The position numbers and the translations under genes are program-made. This document shows positions 6,866-8,065 of a DNA stretch of 64,000 nucleotides, in pieces. Within the stretch, counting starts at the first letter, position 1; the number at the start of each line of letters is the position of its first letter. The notes beneath the pieces are model-generated. The model was not told the DNA's origin, did not search any database, and was given only the letters and a program-made list of their open reading frames with translations. The DNA comes from Gammaproteobacteria bacterium (GTDB lineage Bacteria > Pseudomonadota > Gammaproteobacteria > Pseudomonadales > Azotimanducaceae), in the NCBI GenBank assembly GCA_028819195.1, contig JAPPMF010000009.1, positions 84,363-148,362 of the forward strand, given 5' to 3'.

Positions 6866-8065
6866 ATGCGAGTATTCGTTTGGCTTGGGCTCTTGGTTCT
6901 AGGACTTACACCATCCTATTCGCTAGCTATTGATGAAACCGGCGCTACTACAAAAGAGCACGTAACTTACGTTACTACCGAGAGTTTCGAGTCTGAGGTA
7001 TTGGAGTCGGATCTTCCGGTGCTTGTGGACTTTACTGCGACCTGGTGCGCACCATGCAAGACATTGGATCCAATCATTGACAGCCTAATGCCCGGGCTGT
7101 CTGGTAATGCGAAGGTAGTCAAGCTCGACATTGACGAGTCGCCGGAAATTTTTTCTAAGTATCAACTAACGGGCGTTCCCACAGTACTGTTTTTCAATAA
7201 CGGAAAGGAAGAAGACAGGATCATCGGGCCACAATCTAGGGAAGTCTACGTCAAGTATCTCGAAGGCATGCATCGGGGCACGCCCGCATTAGAAATCAAG
7301 ATTGCATTGCTCGGGGAAGACTCGTTTAGAAGGGATTTCATCTTGAACCAAAGGCCAGAAATACTTCGAGAAGCCCTTAAGCAATATCCGAACTTGCTCA
7401 AGGATAAATTCGAGAACGGCCAATCTCCACTCTCGCTGGTTCTCAATTATCGTAGTGGCGGTCTGGACGAGCATATCGAATTGCTGTTGGCAGAGAATCC
7501 AATACTTAGCCTAGGCGATCATGTGGGGCTTGGACAATGCGAAGAATTTGAACGCATTGTTAGCGAAGATCCGGCAGCGGTAAATCGCAACGATTCCGAT
7601 GGCAACTCTCCACTCCTCACTGCTTTGATTCATCATGGCCGACTGAAAGAGAGAAGCTGTCTGCGTGCGGTTCTGGATGCTGGCGCCGATCCTGGAATGT
7701 CAGATTCATCGGCATTCACCGTCGGCCGAGCTGCGGTACTGCCATCTAATTGGAGTTTTCTCGAAGAACTGTTGGAGAAGGGGCTAGACACCAAGCACAC
7801 CGACGTGGGCGGTCGAAATGCGTTGCATTGGGCAGCGTTTTACGGTTTTCCCCCCACCGTGAAGCCACTGCTGGATCATGGCGTTGACCCAGCGATTCGG
7901 GCATTGAACGGTGAGACTGCCGCCGACATCGTTCGGCAAAAACGTGATCTATGGCAAACCACAATTGAGGGCAAGACTTCAGTATCTGAAGACTTAAGGA
8001 GTATGTTGGCAATGTACGATGATCTTCTAGCTATGCTAGAGGGTCCATCGGAGAATGAAGAGTAG
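6866..8065 (+). CDS. Secreted thioredoxin (TrxA-like, WCAPC) fused to ankyrin repeats
   Basis: Signal peptide MRVFVWLGLLVLGLTPSYSLA. The thioredoxin domain aligns by eye to E. coli TrxA: ESFESEVLESDLPVLVDFTATWCAPCKTLDPIID...GVPTVLFFNNG. ANK-like repeats DGNSPLLTALIHHG...LDAGADP and GRNALHWAAFYGFPPTVKPLLDHGVDP...NGETAADIV. Confidence 0.8.
   Translation: MRVFVWLGLLVLGLTPSYSLAIDETGATTKEHVTYVTTESFESEVLESDLPVLVDFTATWCAPCKTLDPIIDSLMPGLSGNAKVVKLDIDESPEIFSKYQLTGVPTVLFFNNGKEEDRIIGPQSREVYVKYLEGMHRGTPALEIKIALLGEDSFRRDFILNQRPEILREALKQYPNLLKDKFENGQSPLSLVLNYRSGGLDEHIELLLAENPILSLGDHVGLGQCEEFERIVSEDPAAVNRNDSDGNSPLLTALIHHGRLKERSCLRAVLDAGADPGMSDSSAFTVGRAAVLPSNWSFLEELLEKGLDTKHTDVGGRNALHWAAFYGFPPTVKPLLDHGVDPAIRALNGETAADIVRQKRDLWQTTIEGKTSVSEDLRSMLAMYDDLLAMLEGPSENEE

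Follow-up and report, generated by a model that had tools for sequence, protein, structure and literature searches.

The thioredoxin TrxA of Escherichia coli (2TRX, PF00085) is characterized by its fold, the active-site motif WCxPC, a buried Asp, a Lys after the second active-site Cys and a cis-Pro. Client recognition by periplasmic reductases usually relies on this fold itself. The TlpA, ResA and CcmG proteins are extracytoplasmic CxxC reductants that have dedicated clients and depend on DsbD/CcdA; TlpA carries the motif CVPC. In the cytoplasmic E. coli protein CnoX (YbbN, 3QOU), which is not known to have a CxxC motif, an N-terminal thioredoxin (Trx) domain is joined to an all-α protein-binding domain of TPR repeats. 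Ankyrin (ANK) repeats occur in 'eukaryotic-like proteins' (ELPs) of sponge symbionts and in the phage protein ANKp, which belong to sponge-associated microbes, have N-terminal signal peptides and act by binding only, without a catalytic domain. In Pseudomonas aeruginosa, the envelope ankyrin-like protein AnkB supports the redox enzyme encoded beside it; it is a separate polypeptide without a Trx domain, its partner is the catalase KatB, and it is reportedly periplasmic and required for KatB activity. The two genes form the katB-ankB operon (PMC8466533). Here we analyze a 64-kb stretch of contig JAPPMF010000009.1 from a gammaproteobacterium of the Azotimanducaceae (hereafter the window), in which two genes, copy 1 (type A) and copy 2 (type B), each encode a putatively exported Trx domain fused to an ANK or ANK-like region (Table 1). 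In the literature on thioredoxin and ankyrin in sponge symbionts or exported bacterial proteins, we found no description of such a Trx-ANK fusion. We see about an even chance that the proteins are thiol-disulfide reductases of the cell envelope that use the ANK domain to bind a particular client or partner.

A preliminary description of the window had divided copy 1 into a cleavable-looking signal peptide, a domain collinear with TrxA carrying WCAPCK, and ANK repeats, and this layout proved to be real. The N-terminus reads MRVFVWLGLLVLGLTPSYSLA followed by IDE: a basic n-region precedes a hydrophobic core of 12 residues, and S-L-A occupies −3/−1. The same leader pattern recurs across the family, which fits the proposed export: a hydropathy/lipobox heuristic found a hydrophobic leader in 144 of 145 full-length homologues, and 57 of these leaders have a lipobox. 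The AlphaFold2 model of copy 1, built from a 52-sequence alignment, is a single compact body (mean pLDDT 89, pTM 0.79) with disorder confined to the leader and the extreme C-terminus.

The Pfam thioredoxin model (PF00085) matched amino acids (aa) 33-132 (E 2e-25, 89.1 bits, cut-off 23.5), and 104 residues could be aligned with E. coli TrxA without a gap at 37% identity. In this alignment, D55, W60, C61, C64, K65 and P105 of copy 1 correspond to D26, W28, C32, C35, K36 and P76 of TrxA. The buried Asp (D55), the WCxPC motif, the following Lys and the cis-Pro (P105) are thus all at TrxA positions, and Foldseek superimposed the Trx part on 2trx_A with a root mean square deviation of 1.4 Å over 104 columns. 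Unlike TrxA, Trx-ANK proteins are predicted to be exported, are fused to a helical/ANK domain of ~260 aa and have AP or VP instead of GP between the active-site cysteines. We do not assign copy 1 to the housekeeping thioredoxins, because it scored 91.2 bits with the equivalog model TIGR01068, just under the cut-off of 96.8, and carries a putative signal peptide as well as a further 260 aa at its C-terminus.

The ANK identity of the C-terminal region was confirmed by three methods that agree with each other: Pfam, a sequence search of the PDB and the structural model. Pfam detected Ank_2 (PF12796) at aa 265-344 (39 bits, cut-off 27.3) and Ank (PF00023) at aa 316-345 (34.5 bits, cut-off 21.1), so a profile search does find the repeats noticed by eye. 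A phmmer search of the PDB with aa 137-399 returned designed ankyrin repeat proteins (DARPins) and natural ankyrins (best E 3e-27), and one unbroken alignment covers aa ~222-363, that is, four repeats. In the model, paired helices between aa 141 and 392 form about five ANK-like repeats plus caps, namely aa 184-215 (degenerate), 216-242 (N-cap-like), 243-279, 280-312 and 313-345 (canonical). The preliminary count of "at least two" repeats was therefore right as to their presence but too low as to their number. Searching the PDB with the whole model by Foldseek gave no whole-protein likeness (best query-normalised TM-score ~0.25); the top matches were all Trx domains, and this search thus did not address the ANK part. 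In the three-helix connector between the two domains, D152, R155 and R156 are invariant and F154 is nearly invariant (alignment A1).

Two features of the solenoid are conserved. First, a second cysteine pair, C225 and C265, is located at the start of the second helix in two adjacent ANK repeats and was kept by every exported member whose sequence could be read, across the two subfamilies and all phyla. In two relatives without a signal peptide, C225 is replaced by Leu or Ile, and C225 was found only in exported forms. Because the pair is confined to exported forms, it probably represents a structural disulfide. An apparent in-frame stop at the C225 position of one homologue (L023) was considered as a possible selenocysteine codon, and this was rejected, since the stop is a masked run of N and uninformative. 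Second, the conserved D245 corresponds to position 3 of repeat 3, and W322 and Y326 correspond to positions 10 and 14 of repeat 5 in a numbering inferred from the DARPin alignment. These three residues thus appear to fall at canonical target-binding positions of ANK domains.

This architecture recalls CnoX, which may serve as a conceptual model. Trx-ANK could be a periplasmic 'chaperedoxin' analogous to CnoX/YbbN, whose ANK part would hold many unfolded envelope proteins as general clients and whose Trx cysteines would form mixed disulfides, shielding client cysteines from over-oxidation by host-derived oxidants. The order of the parts is indeed that of CnoX (N-terminal Trx, C-terminal all-α repeats), YbbN (3qou) was among the Foldseek matches, and the gene lies within an island rich in exported antioxidant-type Trx-fold genes. 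However, the YbbN match is confined to the Trx part (TMq 0.23), no TPR profile matched, the repeats are ANK and a leader is present, so Trx-ANK does not belong to the CnoX/YbbN proteins. In addition, ANK domains usually bind folded partners specifically, and the conservation across phyla at ANK binding positions suggests one conserved ligand. Also compatible with a chaperedoxin are the signal-less relatives P0277 and P0293, which have the full-length Trx-connector-ANK layout, score ~250 bits with the family profile and carry WCGPC. The gene for P0277 (L088 8001-9098) encodes no leader and has a stop codon directly 5′ of its start. Taken together, we regard the chaperedoxin as improbable. One of the signal-less relatives comes from a TARA sample, i.e., from a non-sponge marine source; its gene adjoins ECF-sigma, FecR and TonB-receptor genes, with M13 peptidase and SbmA/BacA-type transporter genes downstream. 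The presence of signal-less relatives in other marine bacteria indicates that the Trx-ANK unit has a bacterial role in its own right.

The active-site sequences of the family bear on the direction of the reaction. WC[VA]PC was present in 110 of 122 family sequences, and the dipeptide between the cysteines was of the reductase type xP (VP, AP or GP) in ~95% of the members; most of them thereby share CVPC with TlpA. Five of the 122, including the closest genome relative, have the PDI-like motif WCAHC or WCVHC. This motif, together with weak NCBIfam matches to PDI domain models, could speak for an oxidase or isomerase of the DsbA/PDI type that makes or shuffles disulfides in an ANK-held, cysteine-rich exported client. 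Candidates for such a client would be the neighbouring large paralogues or the protein with a formylglycine-generating enzyme (FGE) fold encoded next to copy 1, which is exported and cysteine-rich. We consider this reading very unlikely, as the xP dipeptide predominates and the buried Asp and the other TrxA features are retained. Moreover, the PDI domain model TIGR01126 gave 55 bits with a cut-off of 107.2, and the window's protein has CAPC, not CGHC; it is therefore not a member of this family. Neither is copy 1 a member of the TlpA/ResA/CcmG proteins: PF00578 and PF08534 did not match, and the scores with the TlpA and ResA models were 19.7 bits (cut-off 230) and 23.5 bits (cut-off 170), respectively. 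Trx-ANK has a classical PF00085 domain, and TlpA-type proteins have no ANK domain.

Copy 2 consists of a leader (aa 1-21), a Trx domain (aa ~40-143), an ANK-like region (aa 148-278) and a subfamily-specific C-terminus (aa 279-353). Its start is preceded by a Shine-Dalgarno-like GAGAGG ~10 nt 5′ of 13425; another ATG is located at 13392. Copies 1 and 2 are 47% identical over aa 21-303 and divergent afterwards, in line with the different C-terminus that had been noticed earlier. The Pfam thioredoxin model matched copy 2 (E 2e-20, 73.3 bits, cut-off 23.5), and the Pfam ANK models matched neither copy 2 nor any other member of the type B subfamily. The AlphaFold2 model of copy 2 (pLDDT 80, pTM 0.77) retains the Trx fold, then some three helix pairs of ANK-like form, and after these a β-hairpin and two helices.

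The active site of copy 2 retains both cysteines and the cis-Pro, and differs from a TrxA-type site by Asp to Val, Trp to Ser and Gly to Asp. The codons for Ser and Asp are tcg (13623-25) and gac (13629-31). In related strains, a G at both 13624 and 13630 restores Trp and Gly and thus WCGPC. Indeed, WCGPC was found in every type B orthologue and SCDPC only in the window's strain. The SCDPC variant is real: the allele is present in a contig with 243x coverage and in a run from a different study.

The preliminary description had seen in copy 2 a second copy with a degraded active-site context. The Trp to Ser change stands, but copy 2 is not a degraded duplicate. In a dedicated search, the type B subfamily (P0121-P0147, 25 aligned members) comprised proteins of 353-402 aa with 48-91% full-length identity, all of which share the C-terminal motif W-G-P-x-W-[YH]-N-D...R-S-E-D-L-I. 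Types A and B co-occur on single contigs in several assemblies. Compared with the orthologues from the metagenome-assembled genome (MAG) COS2_bin_1, dN/dS was 0.25 (copy 1) and 0.18 (copy 2), which indicates that both copies are under purifying selection; dN/dS was also low in the type B C-terminus, though dS was saturated there. Since the subfamily is conserved with full-length orthologues and a conserved C-terminus, co-occurs with type A, keeps its fold in the model and has a low dN/dS, we ruled out that copy 2 is a decaying pseudogene. Between copy 1 and its relative at L001 10001-11221, synonymous divergence is uneven: dS was ~0.60 for the Trx part and 0.10-0.15 from the connector through the ANK region to the C-terminus, possibly as a result of recombination or gene conversion.

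A protein search with copy 1 retrieved more than 285 relatives. Nearly all of the best 120 are 396-456 aa long and have Trx and ANK annotations; where names are given among these 120, they are 'thioredoxin domain-containing protein' or 'hypothetical protein', and NCBIfam has no model for the Trx-ANK family. A library with a single genome for each species contains 28 loci with a gene for a full-length relative, all of them in MAGs of Gammaproteobacteria, Acidobacteriota (Thermoanaerobaculia including Ca. Multivorans, and Vicinamibacteraceae) and one member of the Rhodothermales; the lower-ranked matches were plain thioredoxins. COS2_bin_1 has three family members. When 1.84 billion cluster representatives were searched, giant ANK proteins made up the bulk of the matches, and only about a dozen 50%-identity clusters matched the profile as single full-length stretches, showing that the family is small. 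In the viral contig collection we found only plain thioredoxins and no Trx-ANK gene. The habitat was checked for three genes. The window's gene was found in sponge metagenomes of several studies and in two coral-metagenome runs, the Acidobacteriota homologue mainly in sponge metagenomes, and the Ca. Multivorans homologue in sequencing runs of coded host organisms. In being encoded by sponge-associated microbes, these proteins agree with the eukaryotic-like ANK class of sponge symbionts; an action on host cells, such as lowering phagocytosis, would be the other mark of that class. The domains themselves are ordinary (PF00085, ANK), their combination and ecology are unusual, and the chemistry is likely to be conventional. 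In a rough neighbour-joining tree (no support values), the Acidobacteriota and Rhodothermales copies are nested within the gammaproteobacterial diversity, which is in keeping with a horizontal spread of the family within the holobiont.

This distribution raises a possibility that the preliminary description had not considered, a host-directed 'eukaryotic-like' factor, released or surface-exposed after Sec export, whose ANK part would bind a sponge protein and whose Trx domain would reduce its disulfides; sponge cells might, for instance, become less able to recognize or phagocytose the symbiont. The occurrence of the three checked genes mainly in sponge and coral metagenomes agrees with this, as do the 28 loci, which are all from MAGs, many with names in the style of sponge studies, and span Gammaproteobacteria, Acidobacteriota and Rhodothermales; the nesting in the tree and the variation of the gene context across phyla point in the same direction. 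Furthermore, ANK proteins of sponge symbionts modulate phagocytosis (PMC6372511, citing Nguyen et al. 2014), and a sponge-phage ANK protein with a signal peptide is secreted and lowers phagocytosis (bioRxiv 10.1101/608950). However, a Sec signal or lipobox reaches only the periplasm or the membrane, and no dedicated secretion system is linked to the genes. Since there is no obvious extracellular electron donor, a secreted thioredoxin would act only once. The recurrent linkage to genes of periplasmic TlpA-like reductases and TonB-dependent receptors points to a role in the envelope, the signal-less relatives extend to a non-sponge marine sample, and the viral contig collection contained no member of the family. 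We think that a host-directed function is unlikely, though it is the main rival of the envelope reductase. We give somewhat less credence to the narrower version of this idea, in which Trx-ANK would be a horizontally shared, holobiont-specific catalytic ELP that binds a sponge or coral protein through ANK and reduces it through Trx, thereby altering recognition or uptake of the symbiont. We are not aware of any reported ANK symbiosis factor that acts by redox chemistry and not by binding alone.

The linkage just mentioned was followed through the other genomes. A TlpA-like (AhpC-TSA/Redoxin) gene stands beside the Trx-ANK gene in the four loci L001-L004 (58-85% identity to copy 1), in the distant loci L017, L019, L021 and L022 (42-45% identity), in L085 and in the type B loci L086 and L087. 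These TlpA-like neighbours share only the C-terminal Trx-fold domain, and their N-terminal parts differ. A TonB-dependent receptor gene adjoins Trx-ANK in L017, L018, L021, L022 and L085, and an FGE-fold gene directly behind type A is confined to the closest relatives (L001, L002). In ten Acidobacteriota loci, the upstream neighbour encodes a ~430-aa protein with a cytochrome c motif, and DUF3604 is often encoded downstream; in other loci the neighbours of Trx-ANK are unrelated. The TlpA-like linkage that the preliminary description had proposed thus exists in most gammaproteobacterial loci but not in the Acidobacteriota members, where no such gene adjoins Trx-ANK. It is lineage-specific, and TlpA-like proteins therefore cannot be the universal partner. 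As side observations, the ~430-aa protein (L007 8547-9947, L016 3591-4883 and eight further Acidobacteriota loci) has CxxCH and the His-rich motifs HHFN, HYH and HMHMRG, with a weak Pfam Cytochrom_C match and no NCBIfam match. Related redox islands encode 230-340 aa proteins with faint EF-hand matches (L086 9266-9961; L087 4545-5234 and 11215-12243) and, in L087, two proteins of ~470 aa of the DsbH/Thioredoxin_7 type; the window has no counterpart of either.

The window covers the replication-origin region, with dnaA-dnaN-recF-gyrB, yidC, mnmE, gidAB, parAB, the atp operon and glmUS. The redox block occupies 1284-14486 on the plus strand, beyond the 3′ end of glmS (15862-17730, minus strand), which is a classic insertion hot spot; no transposase was seen around the block. 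The block starts with three TlpA-like proteins, followed by Trx-ANK copy 1, the FGE-fold protein, a split TlpA-like paralogue, a fifth paralogue and Trx-ANK copy 2, so that both Trx-ANK genes directly follow TlpA-like genes (4932-6746 before 6866 and 11498-13336 before 13425). With the sixth paralogue located elsewhere in the window, this is a marked expansion of extracytoplasmic oxidoreductases. Each paralogue ends in a TlpA/ResA-like WCxxC domain that is preceded by a large N-terminal region, and the full-length copies compared are 35-37% identical. DUF4369 was matched below threshold in two intact paralogues as well as in the N-terminal fragment of the split copy. The protein encoded directly upstream of copy 1 combines such an N-terminal sub-threshold DUF4369 match with a C-terminal AhpC/TSA-Redoxin CxxC domain, and its NCBIfam matches to ResA, DsbE and TlpA were below the cut-offs. 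The best NCBIfam match of the FGE-fold protein was PvdO (186 bits, cut-off 500). We considered whether it is a formylglycine-generating enzyme that needs a reductant and ruled this out, because the catalytic Cys pair is absent by comparison with the motif of human FGE.

Table 1 Features of the two Trx-ANK genes and of their neighbours in the window
Feature	Position	Strand	Description and basis
Trx-ANK copy 1 (type A)	6866..8065	+	ATG start, 399 aa open reading frame (ORF)
Putative Sec signal peptide MRVFVWLGLLVLGLTPSYSLA, aa 1-21	6866..6928	+	Predicted cleavage after SLA, read from sequence
Copy 1 thioredoxin domain, aa 33-136	6962..7273	+	Pfam, TrxA alignment, Foldseek
Copy 1 active site W60-C61-A-P-C64	7043..7057	+	Sequence, TrxA alignment
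Three-helix connector, aa 137-183	7274..7414	+	DSSP helices 141-147, 152-161, 164-173
Copy 1 ANK solenoid, five repeats, aa 184-345	7415..7900	+	Model helix pairs, Pfam, DARPin alignment
Cys225, first of second cysteine pair	7538..7540	+	Alignment
Cys265, second of second cysteine pair	7658..7660	+	Alignment
C-cap half repeat and two long terminal helices, aa 346-399	7901..8062	+	DSSP helices 352-367, 375-392
Trx-ANK copy 2 (type B)	13425..14486	+	353 aa; ORF, Pfam, subfamily, AlphaFold2 model
Copy 2 active site S-C-D-P-C	13623..13637	+	Strain-specific change from WCGPC
TlpA/ResA-like exported oxidoreductase, 604 aa	4932..6746	+	Directly 5′ of copy 1; Pfam
Exported FGE-fold (PvdO-like) protein	8179..9090	+	Directly 3′ of copy 1; Pfam FGE-sulfatase E 2e-60
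TlpA-like paralogue, 612 aa	11498..13336	+	Directly 5′ of copy 2; Pfam
Six TlpA-like paralogues	1284-2870, 3081-4898, 4932-6746, 9318-11037, 11498-13336, 42345-44150		~530-610 aa, exported

Several further observations concern the block and its surroundings. The split paralogue consists of overlapping ORFs in different frames (9318-10523 and 10351-11037), and its COS2_bin_1 orthologue is intact (610 aa, L086 5276-7108). The segment 10513-10650 is repeated among the paralogues and public contigs break there, so that a frameshift and an assembly join are indistinguishable. In L001 the FGE-fold orthologue (11313-11663 / 19608-20216) is broken by an insert of ~8 kb with T5orf172, HSDR_N and ion-channel genes. 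In the flanks of the block (1-1283 and 14487-15861) there are ~1.3 kb without a convincing ORF and two orphan ORFs (15061-15420 and 15461-15829) that had no Pfam match, and COS2_bin_1 has different genes downstream of the type B gene. Fewer promoter and terminator sites were predicted than in shuffled sequence, and the window had no match in the Rfam and tRNA scans. Elsewhere, at 41001-42224, 44336-46755 and 56282-56995, the window encodes, in this order, a DUF4143 AAA ATPase, a 620-aa ParA-like/TPR protein beside an MqsA-antitoxin-like gene, and a PCO_ADO (thiol dioxygenase family) protein.

We favor an envelope reductase with an ANK docking platform because the TrxA catalytic set, the export signals, the compact model and the conserved residues at ANK binding positions all fit it, as do the pairing with TlpA-like and TonB-dependent receptor genes and the signal-less relatives outside sponges. 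According to this proposal, both genes would encode Sec-exported thiol-disulfide oxidoreductases of the thioredoxin type that stay in the cell envelope; the window's two proteins are probably soluble in the periplasm, and many of their relatives would be lipid-anchored. The Trx domain with its reductase-type WCxPC motif would be kept reduced by a membrane electron transporter of the DsbD/CcdA type encoded elsewhere. The three-helix connector would tie the ANK solenoid rigidly to the Trx domain, and the solenoid would be the docking surface that chooses the client or partner whose disulfide is reduced. The presumed C225/C265 disulfide would most likely staple two adjacent ANK repeats in the oxidizing compartment. 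In Gammaproteobacteria, the protein would work with the adjacent TlpA-like oxidoreductases, often together with a TonB-dependent receptor, as part of an expanded extracytoplasmic redox toolkit of sponge symbionts. The domains, the export signals, the conservation, the distribution of the family and the gene neighbourhoods are what the analysis shows, and the reductase direction, the electron source, the choice of clients by ANK, the disulfide staple and the identity of the partner are inferred. Targeting of reducing power by the ANK domain to the neighbouring paralogues, as had been suggested for copy 1, would be plausible. The proposed function would be closest to that of a client-specific periplasmic reductant of the TlpA/CcmG type, while the architecture resembles that of CnoX or PDI, and AnkB/KatB, likened here by description, may be taken as a precedent for an envelope ANK protein that serves a redox enzyme.

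Several points weigh against this interpretation. The WCAHC or WCVHC motif in a few close relatives hints at a more oxidizing role, the neighbourhoods are not conserved across phyla, no DsbD/CcdA gene was found within the 64-kb window, and the habitat-restricted cross-phylum range, together with the ANK repeats, fits the pattern of host-interacting ELPs.

If the envelope reductase reading holds, a rigidly attached ANK scaffold would be a different route to specificity for an exported thioredoxin than features of the Trx fold. The family bears three marks of host adaptation: it is restricted to sponge and coral symbionts, as far as the three genes checked tell, it crosses phyla, and it is multiplied within genomes, with three copies in one MAG and the six TlpA-like paralogues alongside it in the window. 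It is therefore a candidate for studying how redox stress or substrates rich in disulfides are dealt with in the envelope of sponge symbionts, and whether some of the 'eukaryotic-like' ANK proteins are enzymes. The pairs of type A and type B proteins and the natural SCDPC allele offer ready-made comparisons for these questions.

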